Part shown: in pieces, positions 3,790-64,000 of the stretch
Position numbering within the stretch: the first letter of the stretch is position 1
Layout: every line of letters begins with the position of its first letter
Assembly (NCBI RefSeq): GCF_004010195.1
Contig: NC_057719.1
Coordinates: forward strand, 29,978,423 to 30,042,422
Reading direction: 5' to 3'
DNA: 64,000 nt
Source of the DNA: Chiloscyllium plagiosum
Taxonomy: Eukaryota
Made by a program: the position numbers and the translations under genes
Notes under the pieces: generated by a model
Told to the model about the DNA's origin: nothing
The model's database searches: none
The model's input: only the letters and a program-made list of their open reading frames with translations

Positions 3790-4050
3790 AACATTCATTT
3801 GTGGAATGTAAGCATTGTTGGCTAGGCCAGCATTTGTTTCCTATTCGTAATTTCTCAGTGGTAGTCATGAATCAGCATATGTGGGTCTGGAGTCACATTA
3901 GGATAGATTTGGTAAGGATAGCAGCTTTGCTTCCCTAAAGGACATTTGTGAAACACATGGGCTTTTACAACAATTGGCAGTGTTTATATGGTCACCATTG
4001 GACAAGGTTTTATTTCTTTTTATTTTAGTTTTCACCATCTACCATTTAAG
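3790..4050 (-). mobile_element. SINE, second family (core ggttcactaatgtcctttagggaagg), degenerate
   Basis: Shares ggctaggccagcattt and cttccctaaaggacatt.gtgaa with the copies at ~6075-6550, 12620-12915, 31540-31750 and 39345-39680. Confidence 0.7.
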
Positions 4051-4371
4051 AGATTCAAGTCCTTAATTTGCAAGGGGGCCAATTAAACCAAATTAATTTG
4101 CCAATTAATAGCTACTTTGAGTGAAATACCATGTGAGTATTTTACTGGCACAGAATTGGCTCCTACCACTTGGGATTCCACCAGATAAGGGGTGGTGGCT
4201 GCTCATCAGGTTCTTAGATGAGGCCTTCCTCTCTGGCTAATCCATAGCTCATGGAAGGTCTCTGCAGTGGTATTTGCCAGGCCCATGGATTTGACAATGA
4301 GAGTTGATGATTCACCCTTCCATTTACTGGGACTTGCCTACCTGACCATAGTGTATTAAATTAAAACTTAT

Positions 4372-4637
4372 TCAGATTTTAGATTAGATTCCCTACAGTG
4401 TGGAAACAGGCCTTTCGGCCCAACCAGTCCACACCGACCCTCTGAAAAGTAACCCACCCAGACCCATCTCGCTCTGACTAATGCACCTAACACTATGGGC
4501 AATTTAGCATGGCAAACGCACACAGACACGGGGAAAATGTGCAAACTCCACACAGACAATTGCCCAAGGCTAGAATGGAACCTGGGACCCTGATGCTGTG
4601 AGGCAGCAGTGCTAATCACTGAGCCACCGTGCCACCC
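4372..4637 (-). mobile_element. tRNA-derived SINE, HE1/V-SINE type
   Basis: Reverse complement of the same family as 3338-3643 (gcaaactccacacag core; gcagcagtgctaatcactgagccacc head). Confidence 0.85.
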
Positions 4638-4954
4638 ACAATCTGTTCTTCTGAAGTGCCTTGACTTGGTACCTCTTTCTTTCGCCTCCTCAATAGTTAA
4701 AATTAGCTACACAGCTAAGCTGGCAAATCTCTGATTGGAAGGGAAGCTCTGAATGGTGAGGTGTCTCCCTCAAGCAGGTAGTGGTACAAGCGACACTTTA
4801 CTAATGGGTAATATCCCGCCTACGAGCCCAGTTATCCATCTGCATAGGTTCTCTACCCAATTTCAGTTTTGACAGCAGAACAGCCAGCTTGGGATTTTGG
4901 AAAAATTCTGCTGATGAGTTCAACCTGAGTTGTAAACAGGCTCTGATGAAATGT

Positions 4955-5179
4955 TAAATAAAAACCAAAAGAACTGGAGATGCTGTAAATCAGAAATAAA
5001 AAACAAGAAGTTGCTGAAAATGTTCAGCAGGTCTGGCAGCATCAGTGAAGAGAAATCAGAATTAATGTTTTGGGTCTTGTTCTGAGGAAGGGTAACCGGG
5101 CCTGAAAAGTTAACTATAATTTCTCTTTACAGATGTTGCCACACCAGCTGAGCTTTTCCTGCAACTTCTGTTTTTTGTT
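4955..5179. mobile_element. Palindromic Penelope-like (PLE) terminal-repeat insertion, degenerate
   Basis: 13-bp TSD tctgatgaaatgt at 4942-4954 and 5180-5192; imperfect inverted arms; decayed hammerhead-like CTGAGGA-AGGGT...GCCT-GAAAAGTT starting at 5082. Confidence 0.7.
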
Positions 5180-6074
5180 TCTGATGAAATGTGCTATTTT
5201 CCTAAAATTAATTCATTTGTGTTGCTACAAATGTAGATTTGAACTTGTATAGAAAGTATATGAAAGGTGGAAGTGTAAAATTATACATAAAGTCAAATTT
5301 TAAAAATTGGAGTTTGGAAAGACATGAAGACATGAAACAAAAAATAGCTTTTGTGAAAGGTGAGAGGAGAAAGGTTCAAAAGGTAATATGAGGATCAGGA
5401 ATGAATTTGCCAGTAATCTCTTGTTTGACTGATACAACAGTGATGATGCTACTAATGTGGTCATGTAAGCGATGATTTTTGCCATTCATTGATGCTGTTC
5501 TGGAGGAGGAGGAATAACCTAGGCCTGAAGAACTTTGACCTCTCTTCAGGTGCCCCATCCCCTCTGAAGGAAGTGCCATTGCAAACAGACAAGTTCCCAG
5601 GGATTGACTGTTCAGGATATTCCCAAGATACCCTCCCATACCACCTTGCACCTATCTCCCAGAAGGCCCTAGACCACCAGATATTATTGCCACTTTTAGT
5701 AAGTGGCTATCTCAAGCTCAGCTCTGGTTTTCAAGGTAACAGAAACGTAGCAGTGGGAACAAAAAGATTAAACAACATTGAAGTTGCCCTGGCTGCGTGG
5801 ATGTTAACTTATGACGATCTGACACTTGATACAAATTTATCAAATTGTACAACAGTGTTATGGTCTCTTTCAGTTTATTAAGACTTCTGACTATTTGTTT
5901 CCTGTGTGGTCGAACTTGAGGGCACAGGTTATTGTACACATTCACATCATGCAAAAAGTAATTCTTGCTGTCCATGGGGAGGAATGTAATCTCTGGAAAA
6001 TGGGAACTGAAGCTAAATGTCTGGGATTAAGGACATAATTGGCAAAGTTTTGCCACCCTACATCTCTTAGTAAA

Positions 6075-6550
6075 GGCTAGGCAATGGCCTAATGGTATTA
6101 TCGCTGGACTGTTTGTCCAGAGACAAAAGGTGTGGTGCAGGAAAAGCACAGCCGGTCAGGCAGAATCCGAGGAGCAGGAGAATTGACATTTGAGCATAAA
6201 ACCTTCAACAGGAATGTTAATCCAGAGACCTCAGCGATGTTTTGTGGACCCATGTTCAAATCCTGCCACAGCAAATGGTGGTATTTGAATTCAATACATT
6301 GGATTGGATTCCAGATCCAATATCTGGAATTAACAGTCTAAGGATGACCATGAATCATTGTTGATTGTCAGAAAAAAACCAACTGGTTCACTAATGTCCT
6401 TTAGGGAAGGAAGTTGCCATTCTTACCTGGTCTGGACTAAATGTGACTCCTGACTCTCAACAATGTGGCTGACTCATGCCCTCTAGGCCATTACAGATGG
6501 GCATTAAATGCTGGCCTAGCCAGTGATGCTTTCATCCTGGTAAGTAAAAA
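6075..6550 (+). mobile_element. SINE, second family, interrupted by a PLE fragment at ~6125-6215
   Basis: tRNA-like head (ggcaatggcctaatggtattatcgctggact ... tgttcaaatcc) and core ctggttcactaatgtcctttagggaagg. The nested insert is flanked by an imperfect duplication gtt(tg/aa)tccagagac at 6111-6124 and 6216-6229. Confidence 0.75.
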
Positions 6551-6601
6551 AAACTCTAAGTACAATTCCCCCTTGTAACACTGAATATCTCCAAACTGAT
6601 G

Positions 6602-7180
6602 ATCAGGAGCTAAATGGATTTGAGGGTTCACCGATACTCTGTACAGGAAAAGGGTACAGTTGTCTCGAGCACCATGGAGCCAGAGAGCCACGGTGCCTGA
6701 TACTTGGGATTTGTAGCCATTGCTGTTCCCTCAGGTACAAGTAGTACTGAAAAGTAGAAACTAAGCATTTTCCCTTGAGGGTTGAATGTCTCTGCACCAT
6801 GATTAGTTCACAGATCTGATTGCTAAACATATGTTAATGCAGTCATTTTCCTCAAATCCAGCTACTACCAGACTCTCTGAGGCCTGTGTGTCTCATTTTC
6901 AGTACTGTCCTGGCTTCTTCAGCATCCTCATTAACAGCATTGATTCCCTCAGTAACTCCATGAAATTTTCTTCTTCTGGACACGAAGGGAGTGACATACT
7001 TTCCTGCCCAGGAATCTGGCTGAGTGCAGTCAATGGTTCCTTGTACCTGAGGGAACAGCAATGGCTACAAATCTCAAGTATCAGGCACCATGGCTCTCTG
7101 GCTCCATGGTGCACGAGACAAACGGTACCCTTTTCCTGTACAGAGTATCGGTGAACCCTCAAATCCATTTAGGTCCTGAT
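6602..7180. repeat. Long inverted repeat (arms 6602-6741 and 7040-7180)
   Basis: 140/141-nt arms differing by about 5 substitutions and 1 indel by eye, with a ~300-nt spacer. The shared peptide YLREQQWLQI.SIRH.GSLAPWC appears on opposite strands in the ORF track. Confidence 0.9.
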
Positions 7181-7191
7181 TGGGAGATGCC

Positions 7192-10100
7192 ACAGAGTCA
7201 TAGAAATGTATAGCACAGACATAGACTCTTTGGTCTGACTCGTCCATGCCAACCAAATATCCCAACCCAATCAGATCCCACCTGCCAGCACCCGGCCCAT
7301 ATCCCTCCAAACTCTTCCTATTCATATACTATCCAGATGGCTTTTAAATGTTGCAATTGTACTAGCATCCACCACTTCCTCTGGCAGCTCATTCCATACA
7401 CGTACCACTCTCTGCAAGAAAGTGCCCTTCTGCCCCTTACGTCTCTTTTATATCTTTCCCCTCTCATGATAAACCTGTGCCCTCTAGTTCTGGACACCCC
7501 CACCCCAGGGAAAAGACTTTGTCAATTTATCCTATCCATGCCCCATGATTTTATAAACTTCCAAAAGGTCACCCCTCAGCCTCCGACGCTCCAGGGAAAA
7601 CAGCACCAGCTTATTCAACCTCTCCCTGTAGCTCAAATCCTCCAACCCTGGCACATCCTTGTAAATCTTTTCTGAAAACCCTTTCAAGTTTACAACATTC
7701 TTCCGTTAAGAAGGAGACCGGAATTGCATGCAATATTCCAACAGTGGCCTATCCAATGTCCTGTACAGCTGCAACATGACCTCCCAACTGCTGTACGCAA
7801 TACTCTGACCAATAAAGGAAAACATACCAAACGCCACCTTCACTATCCTATCTATCTGTGACTCCACTTTCAAGGAGCGATGAACTGCACTACAAGGTCT
7901 CTTTGTTTAGCAACACTCCCTAAGATCTTACCATTCGGTGTATAAATACTGTTCTGATTTGCCTTTTCAAAATGCAGCACCCCCCATTTATCTAAATCAA
8001 ACTCCATCTGCCACTTCTCAGCCCATTGGCTCATGTGATCAAGATCCTGTTGTAATCTGAGGTAACCTTCGCTGTCCACTATACCTCCAATTTTGGTATC
8101 ATCTGCAAACTTATTAACTATACCTGTTATGCTCGCATCCAAATCATTTATATAAATGACAAAAAGTAGTGGACCCAGCACCGATCCTTGTGGCATTCCA
8201 CTGGTCACAGGCCTCCAGTTTGAAAAACAACCCTCCACCACCACTCTCTGTCTTCTACCTTTGAGCTAGTTCTGTATCCAAATGGCTAGTTCTCCCAGCA
8301 TTCTGTGAGATCTAACCTTGCTAATCCGTCTCCCATGGGGAACCTTGTCGAGTGTCTTAATGAAGTTGACATGGATCACGTCCACCACTCTGCCTTCATC
8401 AATCCTCTTTGTAACTTCTTCAAAAACTCAATCAAGTTTATGAGACATGATTTCCCATGCAAAAAGCCATGTTGACTATCCCTAATCAGTCCTTGCCTTT
8501 TCAAATACATGTACATTCTGTCCCTCAGGATTCCTTCCAACAACTTGCCCACCACCGATGTCAAGCTCACTGGTCTATAGTTCCCTGGCTTGTCCTTACC
8601 ACCCTTCTTAAACAGTGGGACCACGTTAGCCAACCTCCAGTCTTCCGGCACCTCATCTGTGACTATCGATGATACAAATATCTCAGCAAGAGGCCCAGCA
8701 ATCACTTCTCTAGCTTCCCACAGAGTTCTCGGGTACGCCTGATCAGGTCCTGGGGACTTATCCACCTTTATGTGTTTCAAGATATCCAGCGCTTCCTCCT
8801 CTGTAATATGGACAATTTTCAAGATGTCACCATCTGTTTCCCTCCATTCTATTTCTTCCATGTCCTTCTCCAAAATAAACACTGATGCAAAATACTTGTT
8901 TAGTATCTCCCCCATCTCCTGCGACTCCACACAAAGGCTGCCTTGCTGATCTTTGAGAGGGGAAAAAGTGAGGACTGCAGATGTTGGAGATCAGAGGTGA
9001 AAATGTGTTGCTGGAAAAGCGCAGCAGGTCAGGCAGCATCCAAGGAACAGGAGAATCAACGTTTCGGGCATAAACCCGATCTTTGAGATCTTTGATCCTT
9101 GAGAGGCCCTATTCTCTCCTTAGTTACCCTTTTGTCCTTAATGTATTTGTAAATCTCTTTGGATTCTCCTTAACTCTGTTTGCCAAAGCTATCTCATGTC
9201 CCCTTTTTGCCCTCCTGATTTCCCTCTTAAGTATACTCCTACTGCCTTTATACGCTTCTAAGGATTCACTCAATCTATCCTGTCAATACCTTACATATGC
9301 TTCCTTCTTTTTCTTAACCAAACCCTCAATTTCTTTAGTCATCCAGCATTCCATACACCTACCAGCCTTTCCTTTCACCCTAACAAGAATACTCTTTCTC
9401 TGGATTCTCATTATCTCATTTCTGAGGGCTTCCCATTTTCCAGCTGTCCTTTTACCAGTGAGCATCTCCCCCTGATCAACTTTCGAAAGTTCTTGCCTAA
9501 CACTGTCAAAATTTGCCTTCCTCCAATTTAGAACTTCAACTTTTACATCCGGTCTATCCTTTTCCATCACGATTTTAAAACTGATTGAATTATGGTTGCT
9601 GTCTGAAAGTGACACCTCAGTCACCTGCCCTGCCTTATTTCCCAAGAGTAGGTCAAGTTTTGCACCTTCTCTAATAGGTACATCCACATACTGAGTCAGG
9701 AAATTTTCTTGTACACACTTAACAAATTCCTCTCCATCTAAACCCTTAACACTATGGCAGTCCCAGTCTATGTTTGGAAAGTTAAAATCCCCTACCATAA
9801 CCACCCTATTATACTTAGAGATTGCTGAGATCTCCTTACAAATTTCTCAATTTCCCTCTGACTATTAGGGGGTCTATAAATACAATTCCAATAAGGTGAT
9901 CATCCCTTTCTTATTTCTCAGTTCCACCCAAATAACTTCTCTGGATGTATTTCCAGGAATATCCTCCCTCAGTACAGCTGTAATGCTATCCCTTATCAAA
10001 AACCCCACTCCCCCTCTTCTCTTGCCTCCCTTTTTGTCCTTCCTCTTAACATTTGTCTTATGGAACATTAAGCTGCCAGTCCTGTCCATTCCTGAGCCAT

Positions 10101-23711: not shown

Positions 23712-23772
23712 ATGCAGACCAGTGCAGATTCAGCGAAGATGGAATGCCTGTGGAGTTGCTGGAAGAACCATG
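23712..23772 (+). CDS. RTN1: Reticulon-1 short isoform (RTN1-C-type) first coding exon
   Basis: ATG at 23712 (context CCAAGATGC, A at -3) reads MQTSADSAKMECLWSCWKNH plus one G, then the donor GTACTT at 23773. This closely resembles the mammalian RTN1-C N-terminus as I recall it (MQATADSTKMDCVWSNWKSQ). The phase-1 end joins exactly to the exon at 63806 (G+TT = Val). Confidence 0.93.
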
Positions 23773-34963: not shown

Positions 34964-35094
34964 GGAGAAAGTGAGGACTGCAGATGCTGGAGATCAGAGC
35001 TGAAAATGTGTTGCTGGAAAAGCGCAGCAGGTCAGGCAGCATCCAAGGAGCAGGAGAATCGAAGTTTCAGGCATGAGCCCTTCTTCAGGAATGA
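34964..35094 (-). mobile_element. PLE terminal-repeat fragment with hammerhead-like motif
   Basis: Minus strand reads cattcCTGAAGAagggctcatgcctGAAACttcgattc; same family as 35646-35863. Confidence 0.85.
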
Positions 35095-35645
35095 GGAGCC
35101 TTCCCAACATCCACTTTCTCCAGGCCATTCAGTATTCTGTATGTTTCAATTAGATCCCCCCTCATGCTTTTGTTCGTAGCACTGAATATAGACTCAGGAT
35201 CCTCACACGTTCCTCATATGATAGGCTTTTCATTACTGGGACCATTCTCATGAATACACTCTTTGAATACAATCCAGGACCAATACATCCTTCCTAAGAT
35301 ATGAGGCCCAAAACAGTGCACAATAATCCAAATGTGGTCTGACCAAAGCCTTATAGAGTCTCAGACGTACACCCCTGTTTTTATATTCAAGTCCTCTCAA
35401 AATAAATACCATCATTGCATTGGCCTTCCTGACTACTGATTCAACCTGCAAGTTTACCTTGAGAGAATCCTGGACTAGAACTCCCAAGTCTCTTTGCACT
35501 TAAGACTTTTGAATTTTCTCCCCATTGAGAAAATAGTCCATGTCTCAATTCTTCCTACCAAATGAATGACCTCACACTTTCCCATGTTGTACTCCATCTG
35601 CCACTTCTTTGCCCACTCTCCTAACCTGTCCAAATACTTCTGCAG

Positions 35646-35863
35646 GGAGAAAGTGAGGTCTGCAGGTGTTGGAGATCAGAGCTGAAAATGTGTTGCTGGA
35701 AAAGCGCAGCAGGTCAGGCAGCATCCAGGGAACAGGAGAATCGACGTTTCGGGCATAAGCCCGGGCATAATTCCTGAAGAAGGGCTTATGCCCGAAACGT
35801 CGATTCTCCTGTTCCCTGGATGCTGCCTGACCTGCTGCGCTTTTCCAGCAACACATTTTCAGC
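35646..35863. mobile_element. Young palindromic PLE-derived insertion
   Basis: 16-bp TSD ccaaatacttctgcag at 35630-35645 and 35864-35879; perfect 82-bp inverted arms at 35681-35762 and 35782-35863. Confidence 0.92.
35771..35805 (+). ncRNA. Minimal type I hammerhead ribozyme motif (PLE-associated)
   Basis: CTGAAGA (35774-35780), an extra A, stem II GGGC-ttat-GCCC, GAAAC, and the GTC cleavage triplet (35799-35801). Stem III is replaced by the palindrome ACGT. Stem I pairing is weak (TTC/GAT). Confidence 0.7.
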
Positions 35864-38659
35864 CCAAATACTTCTGCAGCCTCTCCACCTCCTCAATGTT
35901 ACAAGTCCCTCTATCTATTCTTTGTATCATCTGCAAACCTTGCCAGAATATCCTCCATTCTTTCATCTAGATCATTAATGTATAAAGTGAAAATTTGTGG
36001 TCCCAACACACAGCCTTGTGGAACACCACTTGTCACCAACTGCCATCCCGAGAAGGACCCTTTTATCCCCACACTCTGATTCCTGCCAGACAGCCAAGCT
36101 TCTGTCCATGCTAGCAACTTGCCTCTAACACCATGGGCACTAATCTTACTCAGTTGCTTCCTGTGTGCCACCTTGTGAAAGGATTGATTGCCACACCTAC
36201 CATTAGCCATTTCCACTCATGAAATGTATTCTTCTGTTTTTATTTCCCTCTTTTGCAGGGCCTGTACTGGTTTCTCAATATTTGGCTCTCAATTGCAGTC
36301 AATACCTGTGTACTATTGCCAATTTCTGATATGCTGTGTACTGTCCAGCTTTGACTTTTGATATCATTGAGTAATAAATATGTGCCCAACATTACTGGAT
36401 TACCATTCTGCCACTAGAAAGGAAAAGGTCTCTGTTTGTTAGATAATCAAGCTTTTGATATACACCCAAAAATCCTGGAATGAGGTAATTCTAATATTCA
36501 AACAGAATAATGACTGTTAGCAAATTGGAAGCAGGGCAGAACTTAGGAGTCCTCAAACTGTTGAGGAAAACAATAGTGAAACAAAAGCTTGTTGAATCCA
36601 GCAAGATCATTTCTCCAGGAAAATACAAGAAGTGAATAATATCTGAGCAAATAAACTATATGTATAAAATCAAATGCTTATTTGCAGTTTTGTGCACACT
36701 GGGTGTGATTGGACCATTCCCCATCAATCATTTAGGATCCTGTGATGTTTGGTGTGAGGGCAGGTTTCCGTAGAGAGGCTATAAAGGCTTTTTGCTGGTG
36801 GAAAATTAATGCTGCTTTGGATGCTCTACAGTCTGATAGATGTTGATTTTTAGGGTTTGATTACCTCTCCAGCTTCAGAGTAATTACACCAAAATCCTCG
36901 CCTGTATTTAGTAGGCATGGGATCCACTGAGCTATTATTGGCAACTGGTTAGAGTTCTCAAGTTAAGCTGTTAAATCCCCAGCCACACTTCTGAACTCCT
37001 TCTTGGACAGCTAGTAGGTGTGCCCATCCATAATCTTGGATGAGAATTTTGTGTGTAGTTTACATTCATCTTCATATATACAAAATTTCATCTTCCCCTC
37101 TGGGGAAATGTTGATTTCAGCCCTACCACTGAATTCAGGAAGTCTGAGCACTATGTCCTTAGTAATAAATGTGTTATGTTGGCTCTTAACTAGGCAAGCT
37201 TTAAATAACCATTGCTAAACATATTAAAAATGTTGATATTTATACTAGGACAAATTTGCAATTCAGCAAGTTTAAAAAAAAACTTCTCAAAATGATCTGG
37301 TGAGTTGCTAATTGTAGGAACCAGCAACGTGTCCTTCTATATTACAGTACTTACTGCACATTTGTGGAGATGATAAAATCCTTCAGAAATCACAAGGCAC
37401 ATTGAAAATCATACTTACCTACATTTTCTTTCCCTTGAAAAATGAAAGCAGTCTAGATATCTGCCATTTGTCTCATAAACAAGTTGATTTGTTTTATTAA
37501 AATAAGGAATTCTTTGCTGTGTGCCATTGTTCTTGTTTAAAAAGTTCTCCAACATGGGAAAGTATAGATGCTCTGGCACCGGAGGCATTTGTGAAGATCT
37601 TAATTTAAATTCAGAGTTTCTGTTTACCGTGGCAAGTAGCCTTTATTTCCAAGAGCTTGGTTTAACAAATGTTGCTCTCTGAGACACAGGATTATTGTGA
37701 GTACCATGTATAATTTGTGCTGCACTAAAGTCCAACTGTTATTAGGAAGTTACATTTGGTGAACTGAAAAACCCCTTTTTACACATTTCGTGCAGTGCTC
37801 TTGTGATTAATTGTCTATCCCACAGGTTAGTAGATTCCACAGACAGCAGATGGCTGCATGCATGCTTACAATGGATAATTAGGCAGTGGGGCACATTTTA
37901 ATTTAGTTTTATTAGCTGAGCTCTCAGCATCCAGACAAAAATACAATTTATTAGTAATGTTTAAATACATGTTCTTTTGTTTCATATGGACTTTAACAAA
38001 GGCTAAGTTAGGTATCATCAACACATTTAATGTTGAACTTGTTTTTTTAATTGTTAAAAATGAAGTCACCAGAAAGAATGCAGCTGTCTCTTATTTATTA
38101 CCATCATGTAACAGTTAGTCCAAGCGTTACCATATCAACAACAAAGTATTTGCTAATAGGGAGCACCATAATTTTTTTTGCAGGCATGTTGTGAAAACGA
38201 ACCTTGAAAAGACAAAAGGACAGTTATATAATCAAACTTTTTTAGGAAAATAGCTTGCACATATCAGGCATTCACTACAGTGGTTCTATTGTTTACCTGA
38301 AATCTTACCATTGGTGTGACATTAAAATCAATCAAGTAAACTGCAGCTCATTTTCATACACACATTTATTTTACTTTTTTATCCCAACATGCCCTCAGTG
38401 CTAACTGAATTATTCCTAAAATGAAGGAATTAGCTTTCCCACTCCCAGCCATTGTTTCCTTTTTTTATGGGTGAGACAAGCAACAGTCTCTTGGAGTTCT
38501 GCCAGTGCCATTCATAAAGTTACCGAAAGATGCAAAAGAGAGCTTTAAGCAGCTCAGATTGCAGTAAATATATATACCCATTTGCAACATGTACATATTG
38601 ATAGGGTGAATGTTGTAAGCTTCATTTTGGTTGCAATTCCTTAGTTGACAATACTAATT

Positions 38660-40473: not shown

Positions 40474-43400
40474 TGAAATAACTCCATAGAAGCTGGTATC
40501 CTGTCACCAAGTCCCCCTTTAGTTGCACGTGGAGAGTCCTTGATGCTGAGCCAGCTCCCTCAGAGTGAATAGGATGTCTAACAGTTCTGTTTTTCTTTTG
40601 AGTGAACAGGATGTCTGACACTCCTGTTTCTTTTTCTTAAACTCCTATTTTTTTCCTTACCCCTACACTATCGCCTAACTGCAGTAGTGCTTATTTTTCC
40701 CCCACACCCATGTTGTGTGTGTGCAGGTGTGAGACACAGTGAAGGACACAAGGTGTACAAGTCTTTGTTCAGTGTCCACCACCAGGAAGAAAAGAAACAC
40801 CAATTGGCCAGTGACAAGCAGTGCCCTTCATATCAAATGACAATGCTGCGTGATCACCAGTGAAGGGGAGGGCAGGGATTAAATCAAAAACAGTCCTGTA
40901 CTTTTTTTTTTGTTTTTCTTTTTTTTTTCTTTTTTACATTTTTTTTTCCCCACACTACCGCCTAACTGCGGTAGTGCTTATTTTTTCCCCAGTACCCATG
41001 GTGTGTGTGTGCCGGTGTGAGACACAGTGAAAGACACAAGGCGCACAAATCTTTATTCAGTTTCCACCACCAGGAAGACAGGAAAACACCCGAGTGGCCA
41101 GTGACGAGCAGTGCCCTTCACATCAAAGGACAGTGCTGTGTGATCAAAACAGTGAAGGGGAAACAGTCCTGTTCATTTTTTTTTTTGTTTTTTTTTGTTT
41201 TATTAAACCCCCACACTACCACCTAACTGTGGTAGTGCTTATTTTTCCCCAGCACCCATGGTGTGTGTGTGTGTGTAGGTGTGAGACACAGTGAAAGACA
41301 CAAAGTGCACGAATCTTTATTCAATTTCCACCACCAGGAAGATAGGAAAACACCCGGGTGGCCAGTGACAAGCACTGCCCTTCACATCAAAGGGCAATGC
41401 TGTGTGATCAAAATAGTGAAGGGGAAACAGTCCTGTTCTTTTTTTCTTTTTTTTCTCTTTTTTTCTTCTTTTTTTTTATATTAACCCCCACACTACCACC
41501 TAATTGCGGTAGTGCTTATTATTACCTGTTTATTTTTTTAAAAAATAATTTAACCCCCACACTACCACCTAAGTGCGGTAGTGCTTATTATATATTTTTT
41601 TTTTCCCCAGCACCCATGGTGTGTGTGTGCGCAGGTGTGAGACACAGTGAAAGACACAAAGTGCACCAATCTTTATTCAATTTCCAGCACCAGGAAGATA
41701 GGAAAACACCCGGGTGGCCAGTGACAAGCACTGCCCTTCACATCAAAGGGCAATGCTGTGTGATCAAAACAGTGAAGGGGAAACAGTCCTGTTCTTTTTT
41801 TTTGAAGGGGAGAGCAAGGAAACATTCTTGTTTATTTATTTATTTATTTTTTCAGTGACAAACACTGCCCTTCACATCAAAGGGCAGTGCTGTGTGATCA
41901 AAACAGTGAAGAGACACCATTTTATTTTATTTTTTTTTTCTCTTCTTTTTCCCCCACACTACCACCTAAGTGCGGTAGTGCTTATTTTATCCCCAGAACC
42001 CATGGTGTGTGTGTGTGCGCAGGTGTGAGACACACTGAAAGACAAAGTGCACGAATCTTTATTCAATTTCCAGCACCAGGAAGACAGGAAAACACCCGGG
42101 TGGCCAGTGACGAGCACTGCCCTTCACATCAAAGGGCAATGCTGTGTGATCAAAACAGTGAAGGGGAAACAGTCCTGTTCTTATCTGTCAGCCAGGGCTC
42201 CCCAATTGGACCAGATTAACAGCCCCAATTAGAGAACTTATTAGGGAATTCTATGAGGTTCATCTGACCTTGTTACAGTCACTACTTCCCTCCCCTTCTG
42301 AGTCCAAGGAGATCCTCGTGGAGTGTTTTAGCACAGAGTTTAGTTCCTCCACCTCTGCCAATGATATGGGCAGCTTGTAACACACAGTAATTTGCCTCTT
42401 GGGCTTGGAGTGTCTTGGAAGAAATTCATTCTCTTCTTAAGGCAGCAAATCTGTCAAGGTGGCAACATCTGCTGTCTCCATCTCAGATTCCAAGGTATCA
42501 TCAACGCTTGACAGAGAGGGAGAACCCATTGGATTCAGAAGAGTCAGAAATGTTATTGAGAGGCAGGCATGTTTTGCTCCTACCTGGTTTGTGGGTTTAC
42601 AGCTTTCATACAGTCCACATGCTTGTTCAGGACCATTGCACCAACCCAAACTTTATATGTCACGACCTGATCTCATGTCGACAATGCCTCTTACCATGCA
42701 GAGCCATTCCATAGGTTCCTACACCAAACTTTGTCCCCTAAAGTAAACTGCCTCTCTTGCTTAGTGGAGTCTTGTGTTCGGCATTGATGTTCCTGATGCC
42801 GTTTCACAAACCTCCATACCCCAGGCCTGGGAAGATCCTATTTAACCTGTTTCAGAGTCTTCTCCCCATTAGCAACGCTGCTAGAGCTAACCCTGTAGTT
42901 GCATGAGAAATAGTCCTATAATCAAATAGAAACCGAGATTGTTAGTATTTAATGAATCCGCAGGCTGTTTCTTTAAGCTTGCTTTCAAAGTTTGGACTGC
43001 TCTTTCCACAAAATCATTGGTTGGTGAATAGTATGGAGTTGTCCTTATATGTCGAATGCCATTCGAATTTACAAAATACTCAAATTCCCTGCAGTAAACT
43101 ATGACCAACGTTTCTGGAAGTTCTGTGTATCGCAAAAGATACACACAGTTTTTCTATCATCATTCCTGTGTTTGATGAATGAACTCAATGCACATGCAGC
43201 TATTTTGAATGGACAGGCACAATCACTAAGAACATTGAGCCCATGAAAGGACCTGCATAGTCGATGTGTAACTAAGTCCAGGGTTTATCTGGCCATTCCA
43301 ACAATTATGGGAAGCTGTTGGCAGTAATTTTTGTCCTTGTTGGCATTCTGGGCACTGCCCCACCAACATGGCGATGTCTACATCCAATCCTGAGAGCCAG

Positions 43401-53465: not shown

Positions 53466-54130
53466 AAATTAGTTCAGTGAGAAGAGTCAGTGTATTTTAT
53501 TGCATGATATAATCTGACAAGAATAATAAATTATTGTTGTACTTAGGCATAGCCACTATGAAATTCATAAGATTTTCTTACCTATGTTCTGGGCAGTAAA
53601 TAATCTGTAAATTCTTGTAGCAGCTAGATCTATACACCGTTTTCTTTGAACTGCATTTCAGTAGTGTAAATATAATTTAGTACCATTTTCGGGCACTCAG
53701 TTTTAATATGGTGAAGTTGTGATAGGGTTGTATCACAACCCAGGTGCACGCTAGGAAATGATAGAAGAGCCATCCATTTTCTGTTGTGTGGTACTGATCA
53801 CAGTTGGCGCTGTGATAGCTGCATGTGTTAAGAATGCTGTTTGCAGAATCATGTCTGGTAATGATCAGATCCAACTGGTGTCAGTGCCCTGATATTGGAT
53901 GTCTGCAGGACACTTTGTGTCATGGTTTACATAGAAAGAAGGCAATAATTACACAAAGCTTGTGGTAGCAACAAACTCCAGTATTCCTGTCCATTCTCAA
54001 CCTGTCTGCAAGGCTGTCTATGCTCACTGTCCTGTTGAACTGTTGTGACAATAAAGAGGTTCTGACTTAGGGAAACGCAAACTGAATGTCCCAAATTGGT
54101 AGGAGTAGGCAATTCAGCCCTTTATGCCTG

Positions 54131-54218
54131 TCCTCGGATGCTGCCTGAATTGCTGTGCTCTTCCAGCACCACTAATCCAGAATCTGGTTTCCAGCATCTG
54201 CAGTCATTGTTTTTACCA
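54131..54218 (+). mobile_element. PLE terminal-repeat fragment
   Basis: cctcggatgctgcctgaattgctgtgctcttccagca...cagcatctgcagtc; TSD cctttatgc(c/t)tg at 54119-54130 and 54219-54230. Confidence 0.75.
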
Positions 54219-54334
54219 CCTTTATGCTTGTTTCACCATTCAAGCTGATTGCTGCAGATTATCCAACTCAGTGCCCTATTCCTGCTCTCGCCCCATACCA
54301 TTTGATCCTTAAGAACCATATCTAAATTTATTTG

Positions 54335-55350
54335 AACAATATATGTGGATAGGAGGCATGATTAGTGAGATTGAGGACGACACCAAAATGTGATATAGGT
54401 ATAGTGGACAGTGAAGAAGGTGATCTAAGAGTGCAGCTTGATCAACTGGGCCAGTGGATGAGGAATGGCAGATGGAGTTTGATTTAGATTGATGCAAGTG
54501 TTGTATTTTGGTAAGACAAACGAGGTAAGACTGATATAGTTAATGAGTCAAGATGTTTCAGACAATGAAGGGCTGAAGGAATGAAGGGCTTTTGCCTGAA
54601 ATGTCGATTTTTCCTGCTCCTCGGATGCTGCCTGACCTGTTGTGCTTTTCCAGCACCACTCTAATCTTGACTCTGATCTCCAGCATCTACAGTCCTCACT
54701 TTTGCTTTTACACAGTTAATGATACTGGGGAGTGTTGTCGAACAGAGACATAGGGGTGCAAGTACATTATACATAGAAAATGGCATCACAGATAGAGTGA
54801 TGAAGAAGGCATTTGGCATGCTTTCCTTCATCGGTCAGAGCATTCAGTACAGGAGTTGGGGCATCATGTTACGGCTGTACAAGACATTGGTACGGCTACA
54901 TGTGGAGTACTGCGTACAATTCTGGTCGCTGTACTATGGGATGGATGTTAAACTGGAAAGGGTGCAAAAAGATTGACAAGGATGTTACTGAGACTGGAGA
55001 GTTTGAGTTTTGAGAAGAGGCTGAATAGGCTTGAACTTTTATTCCTGGAGCATAAGAGGCTGAGAGGTGACTTTATAGATGTTTATAAAATCAAGACAGG
55101 CATTGATAAAATGGATAGCCAAGGTCTTTTCCCCATGGTAGGGGAGTCCAAAATTAGAGGGCATAGGTTTAAGGTGAGAGAGGCAACATTTAAAAGAGAC
55201 CTGAGGGTCAACCTTTTCATACAGAGGGTGGTGTGTATATGGAACAAGCTGCCAGAGGAAGTGGTGGAGGTGCAATATCTAAAAGACACTTGAACAGTCA
55301 CATGGATAGGAACGGTTTCGAGGGATATGGGCCAAATGCAGGAATATGGA
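54335..55350 (+). mobile_element. Older CR1 RT/3' fragment with nested PLE fragment (~54550-54707)
   Basis: LYKTLVRLHVEYCVQFWS and RLRGDFIDVYKI. The nested piece has atgaagggcttttgcctgaaatgtc (decayed hammerhead) and is flanked by repeats of agttaatga. Confidence 0.85.
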
Positions 55351-58095: not shown

Positions 58096-58732
58096 TCAGA
58101 TCAGATAAAACCTATGTAGTTATGAGGGCAGACCAGTATGGATTTGGGAAAAATAGACCTTAAACAGGTCAATAAGGTAGGAACTTTGAGAAAATGACCA
58201 ATAGATTGGACAATGGTCCTCTTGTTGACACTGTATATCTTGTTTTCCAGAAAACAAAGTGCACATTAGGAGCCTATTGAATGAAATGTCATTAATTGAA
58301 GTGAAACTGAATGGGCCAGGGCTGAATGAAACTTCATAAGGCTCCGTGTTTGGGCTGTCACTGCTTTGTGTTTTCATTAATTATTTAGATTAGGAGATAA
58401 ATTGAGTCAATGTTAATTTCACAGGCAGCATAATTATGTTCAGATTAATAATTTAGAAAATGTTGACAGGTTGCAGAGTAATCTAAACAAATTGAGTGAT
58501 TGTCCATTTGTAGCAGATGTCCTTTACTGAAAACATAGGTACCAATGTTTTAGGAATGTTTATACCATTGTAAGAGTGTCTGTTAAGGGTAGTGGATTAA
58601 GAAAAAGATGTTGGACTAGTTGATGACTTCTCATTAACAAGGGACAAATTATATGGCTACAGAGAAAGCCACTAAAATTTTTAGAAATAGTCAGTGTTTA
58701 ATACAATAAAGCATGGTTTAGAGTATACAAGG

Positions 58733-60367
58733 AGAAAGTGAGGTCTGCAGATGCTGGAGATCAAAATTGAAACTTTATTGCTGGAACAGCACAGCAGGTC
58801 AGGCAGCATCCAGGGAACAGGAGATTCGACGCTCCGGGCACAGGCCCTTCTTCAGGAATGAGAGGCAGAGAGCTTCTTCAAGGAAGGCATCCTTGTAAGA
58901 GGATTCGCAGTAGGTTGAAATCTTCGAGGAGAAAGTGAGATCTGCAGATGCTGGAGATCAAAGTTGAAACTTTATTGCTGGAACAGCACAGCAGGTCAGG
59001 CAGCATCCAGGGAACAGGAGATTCGACGCTTCGNNNNNNNNNNNNNNNNNNNNNNNNNNNNNNNNNNNNNNNNNNNNNNNNNNNNNNNNNNNNNNNNNNN
59101 NNNNNNNNNNNNNNNNNNNNNNNNNNNNNNNNNNNNNNNNNNNNNNNNNNNNNNNNNNNNNNNNNNNNNNNNNNNNNNNNNNNNNNNNNNNNNNNNNNNN
59201 NNNNNNNNNNNNNNNNNNNNNNNNNNNNNNNNNNNNNNNNNNNNNNNNNNNNNNNNNNNNNNNNNNNNNNNNNNNNNNNNNNNNNNNNNNNNNNNNNNNN
59301 NNNNNNNNNNNNNNNNNNNNNNNNNNNNNNNNNNNNNNNNNNNNNNNNNNNNNNNNNNNNNNNNNNNNNNNNNNNNNNNNNNNNNNNNNNNNNNNNNNNN
59401 NNNNNNNNNNNNNNNNNNNNNNNNNNNNNNNNNNNNNNNNNNNNNNNNNNNNNNNNNNNNNNNNNNNNNNNNNNNNNNNNNNNNNNNNNNNNNNNNNNNN
59501 NNNNNNNNNNNNNNNNNNNNNNNNNNNNNNNNNNNNNNNNNNNNNNNNNNNNNNNNNNNNNNNNNNNNNNNNNNNNNNNNNNNNNNNNNNNNNNNNNNNN
59601 NNNNNNNNNNNNNNNNNNNNNNNNNNNNNNNNNNNNNNNNNNNNNNNNNNNNNNNNNNNNNNNNNNNNNNNNNNNNNNNNNNNNNNNNNNNNNNNNNNNN
59701 NNNNNNNNNNNNNNNNNNNNNNNNNNNNNNNNNNNNNNNNNNNNNNNNNNNNNNNNNNNNNNNNNNNNNNNNNNNNNNNNNNNNNNNNNNNNNNNNNNNN
59801 NNNNNNNNNNNNNNNNNNNNNNNNNNNNNNNNNNNNNNNNNNNNNNNNNNNNNNNNNNNNNNNNNNNNNNNNNNNNNNNNNNNNNNNNNNNNNNNNNACC
59901 ACCAGCAAGGACCTCAGCTACCGAATGGTCTTTAAAACTGCGTTTTCCTCAGTGTTGAGCGAAAACTCCCATGACTCCAAAGTGTTTGGGATATGGGAGT
60001 GATTCAAACCTCCTAAAATCAGCAAGTTACAGATTGTAAATCAAAACCCTACACAGCAGAAACAGGACCTCATCTGGTCCCTCAAGTGAACCTGTTCCTG
60101 CACTGTGATTGGCCACCTTTCTCCAAACCCTACTCGTCACTATGATTTGATCTCTCCCTGCCTCCTCAATCTCCCCACACCTTGACCTCTTTCCACCTAT
60201 CACATTTCCAACTCCCCTCCTCCAAGTCCCTCCTCCCTACCTTTTATCTTCTCCTGCTGAACACTCTCTGCTCATTCCTGAAGAAGGGCCTGCGCCCAAA
60301 ACGTCGAATCTCCTGTTCCCTGGATGCTGCCTGACCTGCTGTGCTGTTCCAGCAATAAAGTTTCAAC
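58733..60367. mobile_element. Young Penelope-like insertion with tandem and inverted terminal repeats, spanning an assembly gap
   Basis: 15-bp TSD ttagagtatacaagg at 58718-58732 and 60368-60382; two direct repeat copies (~58731-58860, 58928-59033) and one inverted copy (~60271-60369); hammerhead-like motifs at 58828-58855 (-) and 60278-60305 (+). Confidence 0.85.
59034..59897. other. Assembly gap (N run)
   Basis: 864 consecutive N. Confidence 1.
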
Positions 60368-62579
60368 TTAGAGTATACAAGGCCTTGGAACATTCTCACA
60401 CAAAATGCAATGTCCTGTTGTAGGCCTCGAATGATCTTCAGATGGAAAATTAGACTGAGGCCAGTATACTTTGTCAGGTCAATTCAAATGATCGCATATG
60501 TCTGTTCAAGTAAAAGTGGAGATCTTCCCTAATATTTAATCTTCATACAATTTCAGATTGACAGATAATATATTCATTATCTCGTTATTGTTGTGGGACT
60601 TTGTTTGCTATACATTGACTACCATATTTTCTACATCACAACAGTGACAATAGTTTTGATTCTCTGAGCTACAGGATAACTGTGAGGATCAGTGTTCAGT
60701 GGCAACTAATTTGCTACCCCAACCCCAAGAAAGCTTGCTGAATCATGAGTCAATCAGCATGTTAGGATCTCACTTTATAAATCTAAAACCAGAATTTATA
60801 ATTATTCATTTTGTCCTTTACTAACCAAGACTGTGCGACACCTGTGACTGTATTTACCTGCCATTGCCTTGAAATCTGGGTTGTAGTTTGAATCTGCCAA
60901 TCGTATACATCTGATCAATTGGCTAATTGTGAGGTGGATGTGATTCTTGATCTTGATCATCTTCATTTGGTAGAAAGATATCTCTCAGAGGTATGAAGAG
61001 CCAAAGTAAGCTTTCAGTTTAAAAGCACAAGATGATGAGTACTTTTTCCGTTTATGAATCCTCAAAAATTGCTGTCCCTTGATCTAACTTTCAGCTGACA
61101 TTATTTGTTTTTGATTTTTTTCTACTATTTTTTCTGGACTTGGGAAGTGTTGCAACATTTTGTTTTTTAATTGGAAGGACCATAGACTGAGTTTCAATTT
61201 AAATGCATTCCCATCACTGATCATACATTTTTGTTCCTTCCCTGCAGTTCAGAGTTCAGCTCATTCAGAGTAGAGTGTCAGATTTTGCAGCAAAATCCAG
61301 AAGTTGCAAGTGAAGCTAAACTACATGTAACACTTTATTCTGCAACCTGCCTTCCTTTCTCATCCCTTTTTAGATCACTCTGTAGATTATTCAGCTCCTT
61401 AGAAAATAATCTCCAATTACTTTATTATTCTAAACCAAATTTCAGGAAGAATGTTCAGTGTTATATTATTTAATTTAAATATTTACATTCTATAATAACA
61501 TTTTTAGTAACTTAGTTTCTAATGGGCTGGGACATATCATTGTATTTAATGCACTGCATTCAAGTATAAATTGTCAAAGTTTTTTATTCTTCAGGGCTCA
61601 GAATTTAAAGATCTGTGCGAAGACATCCTTATGGAAATGAATTGCTTTGTGTCTCTCTGTATAACTTAGAACCAAATAAATCAAAAGCGTTCTGAACCTT
61701 ATGAAATACAACAACGTTCTTTTAAGAACAAGGATATTTAAACTCTTCAATATTCCAAACATGGTATTAATCAGTGAGTTATATTGGGTTAAATAATTTA
61801 ATTTGGTTAAATGCTATTCAGCATTCAGCTATTAAACTTTGTTGAAAACATTGTCATTCTGATTATGCTATCAGTGCTTAATTAATAATTACATGCAAAT
61901 ATTATTTCATTTTCAATTTCCACATGACACCTAATATTTTTATATTTTGTTACCTGTTCAAAAGCTTTCAGCCTTTCCTTAATTCCTTAATGTGATCAGT
62001 TGGCTTATGTTCTTTGAAGCTGATCAAGTTTCTTGTATGCATATATTGCAATTTTTAAAAATACTTGAACAAGGTAGACAATATATCTAGAATAGCTACC
62101 TCATACCACACAACTGGTTTTTGCCTATTTTAAGTCTTCAAACACTCTGGGTTTTATTATTCAATTAACTTACTCACATGTAGAATTTATGAAATGCCAT
62201 TAGCAGCATGGTTTTACATGCTTGTTAATTGTGTTTTTGTTTGTAATACTTTACTTGGAGAAGGTAATTATTTTCCTATTTAATTGCTACATTGTAGTAC
62301 ACTATTGGAATTTTAATTTAGTTTGTCATAATGTATTGAGTTATAAATTATTAGCTTCATCGTTCAAGTTATTCCTGTATGCAAACCAGTTAAAATGTCT
62401 TGTAAGTATAATTTCATGTTGATATTGGTCCATTTTTCTCCATGTTTCTTTCACAGGTGTAATTTGTAATGTGGATATTTGTATATTCTGATGAATTTTC
62501 TACTGGTTGGAATAGGGCGAGGTAAAGAAAACCAGGCCAATGAAGCATTCAAATAATTTTACCATGCTCATCCCATTTT

Positions 62580-63715: not shown

Positions 63716-63805
63716 TCTTCCTTTTACTTTCCAGAAGCACTCATTATTCATATTAATTGATCTTGTTGTAGCAGATTTATCTTATTCTTTCTTCTTTCTC
63801 CTCAG

Positions 63806-64000
63806 TTATTGACCTGCTGTACTGGCGTGACATCAAGCAGACAGGAATTGTCTTTGGAAGTGTGCTTCTTCTGTTGTTTTCACTCACCCAGTTCAGCGTT
63901 GTGAGTGTCATAGCTTACCTGGCACTTGCTGCACTCTCTGCTACAATCAGCTTCAGAATTTATAAATCAGTGTTACAGGCTGTGCAGAAGACTGATGAAG
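63806..64000 (+). CDS. RTN1: Reticulon-1, first reticulon-homology-domain exon (continues past window end)
   Basis: A pyrimidine tract (cttattctttcttctttctcct) and CAG end at 63805. The exon then reads (V)[64 protein letters not shown]. The [21 protein letters not shown] and QKTDE motifs fit RTN1 better than RTN3 or RTN4. Confidence 0.97.

Follow-up and report, generated by a model that had tools for sequence, protein, structure and literature searches.

The window, i.e. the whole stretch of 64,000 nucleotides of Chiloscyllium plagiosum DNA that was analysed, contained two exons of RTN1 on the forward strand (Table 1); the long-isoform exons of this gene lie upstream of the window, and the named homologs are reticulon-1. 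The insertion at 35646..35863, hereafter the RTN1 stub, had been described beforehand as intronic and sense to RTN1. This is indeed the case, as the + strand exons at 23712 and 63805 bracket it and its right arm has the sense orientation. It is located ~12 kb into a 40-kb RTN1 intron, inside another repeat, which we take to be a CR1-type LINE. The host sequence is itself repetitive, with a high contig depth on both flanks.

Table 1. Features of the RTN1 stub and its surroundings (positions in the window; TSD, target-site duplication; PLE, Penelope-like element)
Feature	Position	Strand	Basis
Short-isoform RTN1 first coding exon	23712..23771	+	
Left TSD, 16 bp	35630..35645	+	Identical 16-mers; empty-site reads from paralogous host repeats
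Tailed arm: PLE terminal repeat, from core position +9 (first G of helix II) to element 3' end	35646..35762	-	
35-nt 'tail', on the tailed arm alone	35646..35680	-	Published tail 30-40 bp
Perfect inverted repeat, 82 bp, loop 19 nt; long hairpin in the transcript of either strand	35681..35863	.	
Junction filler, 7 nt, repeats 35751-35757 (templated slip); competes with helix II	35763..35769	+	
Tail-less arm: from 4 nt before CUGA (modal 5' boundary of the family) to 35 nt short of the 3' end	35770..35863	+	
Helix I 5' strand; partner 35802-35805, one U.U mismatch	35770..35773	+	
Minimal type I hammerhead core; predicted cut after 35801	35774..35801	+	Consensus features in PMC4209133
Core parts: C3-A9 and extra A; helix II; then GAAA and ACGU palindrome	35774-35781; 35782-35793	+	
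Right TSD, 16 bp	35864..35879	+	
RTN1 reticulon-domain exon; insertion in the intron preceding this exon	63805..63999	+	

Direct reading of the window at 35774-35801 gave exactly CTGAAGA-A-GGGC-TTAT-GCCC-GAAAC-GTC, every base of the hammerhead core being as claimed in the preliminary description. The inverted repeat reported there was found as well, 35681-35762 and 35782-35863 being complementary at 82/82 positions around a loop of 19 nt, and the stability of the hairpin was predicted by folding to exceed chance (z = -23; -191.9 kcal/mol in context). The same 16-mer stands at 35630-35645 and at 35864-35879, and copies of the host repeat elsewhere continue across the insertion point with a single one (in each of the three DNA runs, loose ends were seen behind 35645), so that the 16-bp TSD claimed earlier is a true one. 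Each arm of the RTN1 stub has sequence that is absent from the other. Indeed, the tailed arm (35646..35762) represents the last 117 nt of the repeat without CUGAAGA, and therefore holds no ribozyme. The youth ascribed to the insertion agrees with one substitution in 211 arm bases relative to a close family copy (L018); this single difference sits in the left arm, the right arm having 0.

Several related copies were present elsewhere in the window. At 34964-35092, 680 bp upstream, the family of the RTN1 stub is represented by a solo tailed copy that has a mutated core and runs antisense to RTN1; over 94 nt, its complementarity to the right arm reaches 95%, making an alternative long-range duplex possible. 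Another solo tailed antisense copy (8961-9078) ends at helix II, within a LINE fragment. Furthermore, a larger insertion at 58731-60368 belongs to a sister subfamily that has the full 4 bp in helix I and a variant loop on helix II. Two tailed antisense ends in tandem are followed there by an assembly gap and then by a tail-less end in sense orientation, the core of which is changed at G12; what looks like a 13-bp duplication flanks the whole. PLE ends of greater age, which also bear hammerheads and stem from other families, occur at 5082-5165 (family B) and 54127-54702. Lastly, repeated blocks of a few hundred bases each, with similar translations, were seen at 41346-42377.

Judged from sequence comparison, the hammerhead identity is genuine and is backed by covariation, with just four families and hence few independent events. 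A descriptor of the minimal hammerhead, written without helix I and without a requirement for the 15.2/16.2 palindrome, was run on eighty evenly spaced 10-kb genome samples from five large contigs (752,566 non-N bases, ~0.75 Mb); it gave 70 matches, compared with 2 in reversed and 0-2 in shuffled sequence. Rfam at gathering score gave no match in the 64-kb window. Over all loci collected, 203 unique descriptor matches were distributed over families A (152, this being the family of the RTN1 stub and enriched by locus selection), B (8), C (24) and D (9), with 10 unassigned. Helix I, helix II and the 15.2/16.2 palindrome covary between the families, which upholds the assignment to the minimal type I hammerheads with an extra base after A9. 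For example, the palindrome is ACGU in family A and AGCU in 22/24 matches of family C, and helix I has CG in family A and GC in 22/24 matches of family C. Helix I, which lies outside the descriptor, was 76% paired in 41 family-balanced matches, versus 47% after shuffling (0/5000) and 19-49% after sliding. Position 9.1 is A in 149/151 family A matches, and the core CUGANGA, the extra base 9.1, G10.1-C11.1, GAAA and NUH are all present in the RTN1 stub. Its helix I comprises C-G, U-A, U.U and A-U, i.e. three pairs and a mismatch; U.U occupies the third pair in 118/151 family A matches, and the sister subfamily has the full 4 bp. In family C, cleavage is predicted after GCUA or GCUU, and its short copies likewise appear to start 3-4 nt upstream of CUGA. 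In family D, position 9.1 is U and helix II is longer, with a bulge.

Covarying helices, the palindromic 15.2/16.2 and the extra base are among the features given by Cervera and De la Pena (PMC4209133) for the min-HHR of metazoan PLE pseudo-LTRs. In the available text of that paper, these share with the RTN1 stub CUGANGA, the extra base after A9, G10.1-C11.1, GAAA and the palindromic 15.2/16.2, and with its family the lack of helix III, a short helix I, several covarying families per genome, and an occurrence mostly as solo truncated copies with some close opposite-strand pairs. The fixed U.U in helix I of the stub subfamily is unlike the min-HHR presented there. The scale differs as well, with 30,393 exact copies of one core here versus ~4,000-9,000 motifs in coelacanth and Xenopus (PMC4209133); the available text makes no mention of cartilaginous fish.

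The parent element was approached through its reading frames. In L018, a reverse-transcriptase (RT) fragment lies upstream of the same terminal sequence. Similarly, a search with this fragment yielded RT-selected loci of which 24/25 carry the terminal sequence 3' of the RT on the same strand (the exception being L044), in agreement with the claim of a PLE terminal repeat. The reading frames of these loci contain YIDD, a CX4CxxC linker and a GIY-YIG with two internal cysteines (CxxC), the linker and the cysteine pair between GIY and YIG having been read in the translations of L025, L028, L034 and L036. Pfam matches to GIY-YIG (22.3 bits, cut-off 22.6; E = 1.6e-4) and RVT_1 (E = 2.8e-4, under the cut-off) were obtained on 3/4 fragments and none on the fourth, both domains scoring just or clearly under their cut-offs; in the Atlas, GIY-YIG clusters were matched at 0.97. 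A CX2-5CxxC linker marks Neptune or Nematis PLEs (Craig et al. 2021, PMC8557442), and vertebrates with Neptune and Poseidon PLEs appear in a preprint survey (bioRxiv 10.64898/2026.07.22.740005). Named from the linker rather than from a tree, the parent, an EN+ PLE, would be of the Neptune type. A locus with a 46-bp piece of PLE reading frame in about ten tandem copies within a truncated element was also encountered (L042:1027-1479).

The RTN1 stub is one of ~10,000 near-identical hairpin stubs of a young PLE. Indeed, a 32-mer spanning the core had 30,393 exact copies in the 3.56-Gb assembly, a downstream 32-mer had 66,367, and a head-to-head junction pattern had 12,421 matches, the reversed control being 0 in each case. 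Because symmetric junctions match on both strands (11 such pairs among the first 100 rows, by eye), the last figure corresponds to ~11,000 loci. Related segments numbered 115 in the eighty genome samples, with 31 reaching >=90% identity; scaled up to the whole genome, the 115 would amount to about 500,000 segments. Head-to-head repeats with a one-sided tail, TSD and microhomology junctions are known for EN+ PLE insertions, which consist of an inverted 5'-truncated copy and a tail of 30-40 bp (Arkhipova et al. 2013, PMC3846280; Craig et al. 2021, PMC8557442). These hallmarks, i.e. inverted 5'-truncated copy, tail of the 30-40-nt class and TSD, are all present in the RTN1 stub, although its unit comprises two ends of 94-117 nt without an ORF and TSDs in the family measure 13-16 bp, versus 8-10 in the published PLEs as far as the available text of those papers goes. 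The locus-specific meaning first attached to the hairpin was not supported: the structure recurs ~10,000 times and matches the published insertion pattern of an inverted copy plus tail. The inverted copy with its 35-nt tail is the published PLE architecture, which arises as a side product of insertion and not as a silencer. The stub is carried along passively in RTN1 pre-mRNA, and there is nothing unusual about the locus as such. Non-LTR retrozymes (Cervera and De la Pena 2020; bioRxiv 10.64898/2026.07.22.740005) are likewise non-coding, PLE-related and provided with a type I hammerhead. According to the available text they form head-to-tail tandem arrays with at least two active ribozymes, whereas the RTN1 stub has a single core and a head-to-head arrangement; it was therefore not classified as a retrozyme.

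The ends of the copies were mapped in 99 of the first 100 of the 66,367 matches to the downstream 32-mer, within the first 3.5 Mb of contig C1; selection by an exact 33-mer biases this sample towards young copies. The records comprised 52 palindromic ones (37 insertions), 24 solo copies, 17 long copies and 6 at gaps. Two near-identical insertions with equal flanks, L246 and L247, lie 3.7 kb apart on C1, representing a local duplication after insertion. Relative to CUGA, 32/99 of the 5' ends fall at -5..-3 and 41/99 at -7..-1, compared with 2/99 at -38..-8 and 25/99 further upstream; the 31/99 inside +1..+39 are mostly trimmed palindrome arms. Contigs from DNA run X1, possibly the very sample behind the assembly, showed the same step at -4. 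Hammerhead cleavage was rejected as the source of the 5' ends, with 1/99 at the first base past the cut and 2/99 within +27..+31. A splice acceptor at the boundary, as in the Drosophila element, was likewise discarded, long copies having no AG before it. The 3' ends are bimodal, 46 copies being tailed (0-5 nt missing) and 53 missing 28-42 nt. A TSD of 13-16 bp was found in 44/55 records that have one. With the RTN1 stub included, one arm ends at -6..-1 in 31/38 palindromes, and the 38 junctions comprise 22 overlaps of 1-5 nt, 3 blunt joints and 13 with filler.

The context of the 5' boundary is TCATTC, which presumably resembles the initiator consensus; no downstream promoter element was seen by eye. 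A G precedes the start in 6,804/11,746 (58%) of the copies that begin at -4 with a non-native base, against a background of 25-29%, a share that is inflated by palindromic junctions, where 50% is expected. Among solo copies (60 of the first 100 listed places, with most obvious palindromes omitted, plus previously collected loci), the preceding G amounted to 17/44 (p = 0.10), to 14/24 in those with a TSD (a post-hoc subset that includes one duplicated locus), and to 3/4 where TSD and element are separated by one base. These figures are suggestive only of a cap-like extra G before the element 5' end. Alternatively, the pile-up of 5' ends could reflect not a transcription start but a site where RT stops or the RNA is processed, imposed by the folded hammerhead or a protein bound to it. 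In favour of such a site, the boundary falls on the outermost base of helix I in family A, upstream conservation also drops at -3/-4 in family C, and the extra-G signal in solos is weak. However, a polymerase that travels along the RNA from 3' to 5' would first encounter the 3' side of helix II, the near-absence of ends at -38..-8 suits a physical RNA end, and PLE promoters are internal to the pLTR and have initiator-like elements (PMC2377424), so that we regard this alternative as unlikely.

We consider it likely that the RTN1 stub is a young, 5'-truncated, head-to-head terminal-repeat insertion of a Neptune-type PLE, one of ~10,000 alike, with a hammerhead predicted to be inactive, and that it arose by twin priming, the two nicked strands of the target each serving as primer on a sense RNA that had not been cleaved. 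The PLE identity of the 3' end, the copy numbers, the TSD, the tailed and tail-less arms and the position of the 5' ends, on the first helix I base, are the observed parts of this account. The template RNA would begin at that base, uncleaved, and be primed from both target strands. In a first step, transcription from an internal promoter would begin at or beside the A located four bases upstream of CUGA, in the initiator-like TCATTC. Secondly, the GIY-YIG domain would nick the two strands 13-16 bp apart. Thirdly, one 3'-OH would prime ~35 nt inside the RNA end, giving the tail-less arm, and the other at the very end, giving the tailed arm. Lastly, both cDNAs would reach the RNA 5' end and, after trimming, be joined by short microhomology or filler. 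In L1 twin priming, two target-primed cDNAs are joined head to head by microhomology and flanked by a TSD. The joining and the TSD are the same here, but L1 inversions are non-overlapping, whereas in the RTN1 stub the same 82 bases are covered twice, resulting in a palindrome.

Twin priming on uncleaved RNA is favoured by the 5' pile-up before CUGA, by the pairing of a tailed with a tail-less arm, found in 35/37 palindromes (p = 5e-9), and by the fact that either arm can be the longer one: including the RTN1 stub, the longer 5' reach belongs to the tail-less arm in 20/36 cases and to the tailed arm in 12/36, and is equal in 4/36. A fold-back origin, in which the tailed cDNA snaps back at the RNA 5' end, copies itself and stops ~35 nt short, the centre being revised later by an off-centre deletion, accounts directly for the same pairing. 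Some junctions are indeed near-perfect palindromes, and the arms are more alike than random pairs (2.2% differences versus 3.6% between insertions, with 34 variants common to both arms). In addition, an off-centre deletion of a perfect palindrome could also yield the asymmetry of the arms. Yet tail-less ends occur in 16/24 solo copies, so that internal priming is a first-strand event, while tail-less/tail-less palindromes number 1/37; the longer tail-less arms would need a second event each time, and filler of the kind found at 13/38 junctions is typical of end joining. Fold-back with later deletion is thus a fair rival, though an improbable one.

The head-to-head repeat could also stem from self-primed antisense element RNA, as was proposed for rotifer PLEs with the same architecture (Arkhipova et al. 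2013, PMC3846280), and the family has reads in both directions in a polyA run. The present data favour twin priming on sense RNA over that proposal, since solo and paired copies have an equal 5' boundary and equal classes of the two 3' starts, and either arm can be longer. Moreover, priming on sense RNA from the two strands has since been demonstrated in vitro for the Poseidon PLE of the green anole (Frangieh et al. 2024, PMC11167929). Antisense self-priming therefore fits less well and is considered highly unlikely. In the anole system, both strands were nicked and extended, RT starts were internal and uncleaved RNA was used (PMC11167929). This resembles the stub family, in which two RT starts would likewise define the tail and both strands would be extended, with an uncleaved template and no RNA ends at the cut site. 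The anole element belongs to the Poseidon clade, whereas the stub parent has the Zn-linker of Neptune/Nematis, and in the available text of that report cDNA stop sites were not mapped and the inverted copy was not explained. A literature search at the level of titles, with subscription papers and Repbase outside its scope, found nothing on PLE twin priming, a hammerhead start site or the RTN1-stub family in sharks; the supplements of PMC4209133 and of bioRxiv 10.64898/2026.07.22.740005 may list chondrichthyan motifs.

Ribozyme cleavage at the RTN1 stub is unlikely, because helix I is weak (U.U), an intact partner is missing nearby and helix II is buried. In RTN1 pre-mRNA, the left arm would be made first and is predicted to capture the emerging helix II. 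Prediction thus supported the view of the preliminary description that the inverted arm sequesters helix II together with the cut site: in full context, helix II had a probability of 4e-10 and a ribozyme-compatible fold would cost 36 kcal/mol. With the transcript at 35797, before the cut site is made, arm pairing was already predicted with a likelihood of 0.97. The arm as the cause of silencing was not supported, the motif being probably inactive even without it, given the U.U in helix I, the distant partner and the inactive published monomers. Even in a transcript starting at 35770, the predicted probabilities were 0.99 for helix II and 0.06 for helix I. The construct 35765-35830, suggested earlier for a cleavage assay, would be a poor control, as it is predicted to misfold through the junction filler (helix II 9e-5). 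An active dimer was predicted at -9.5 kcal/mol versus -21.9 kcal/mol for the best cofold, and the window contained no intact sense partner core within 24 kb of the RTN1 stub, the other + strand cores, at 5082 and 60278, being mutated and >24 kb away. Equilibrium folding takes no account of proteins. In published work, min-HHR monomers were without cleavage in vitro and dimers were weak (PMC4209133), and the anole Poseidon ribozyme cleaved only with the element protein, insertion not needing cleavage (PMC11167929).

RNA data from a single-cell polyA run of the same species placed 1,197 reads on the insertion, of which 1,192 were partial fits and 0 extended onto unique flank, indicating that they derive from other copies; element and flanks both being repeats, the reads are not locus-specific. 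Head-to-head junctions are crossed by 14 RNA reads. Read ends do not accumulate at the cut site, although a fragmented single-cell polyA library would hardly reveal such an accumulation. At five sites, A-to-G-type changes (element-sense) occurred in one read direction (47/304, 27/228, 27/84, 22/81 and 32/63) but hardly in the opposite one (1/156, 9/172, 0/88, 0/84 and 1/32), with 0.06-1.1% in DNA contigs. Two of these sites are the conserved GAAA adenines (35747-35748, minus strand), changed at ~30% in one direction and none in the other. The change at 35714 (= L018:1549) is present in both directions, and 35756 is a known subfamily variant. On a non-palindromic reference, RNA versus DNA sites numbered 14 vs 4 for A>G, 14 vs 8 for T>C and 16 vs 9 for C>T. 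Editing at the level of the family is possible, but a single expressed divergent copy could explain all five changes, and RNA and DNA came from different individuals. The strongest reading of the preliminary description, which foresaw a dsRNA substrate for ADAR or Dicer, would make the arm a functional off-switch or dsRNA signal for RTN1, acting through cleavage, editing or small RNAs. The great stability of the hairpin and the strand-biased changes in family reads, including those at the two GAAA adenines, would agree with such a role. It is nevertheless extremely improbable, in view of the ~10,000 equivalent palindromes, the position of this young insertion in another repeat 12 kb into the 40-kb intron, the partial placement of nearly all reads, and the fact that C>T and T>C sites are likewise commoner in RNA than in DNA.

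On a wider scale, the stubs may record how this PLE integrates, with a capped, uncleaved RNA from the first base of helix I being primed twice to give tailed/tail-less palindromes, and their hairpins may form a genome-wide pool of dsRNA in which editing can reach GAAA; we put this forward tentatively, as possible but short of probable. The RTN1 locus matters little, because ~10,000 equivalent insertions exist. The family matters modestly, as the mode of formation of PLE inverted repeats is described as undefined in the available text of Craig et al. (PMC8557442) and copy statistics offer a cheap test between models. These statistics predict a transcription start before CUGA, and suggest both that the hammerhead does not set the 5' end of the copied RNA and that the genome may carry a very large load of perfect intronic hairpins.
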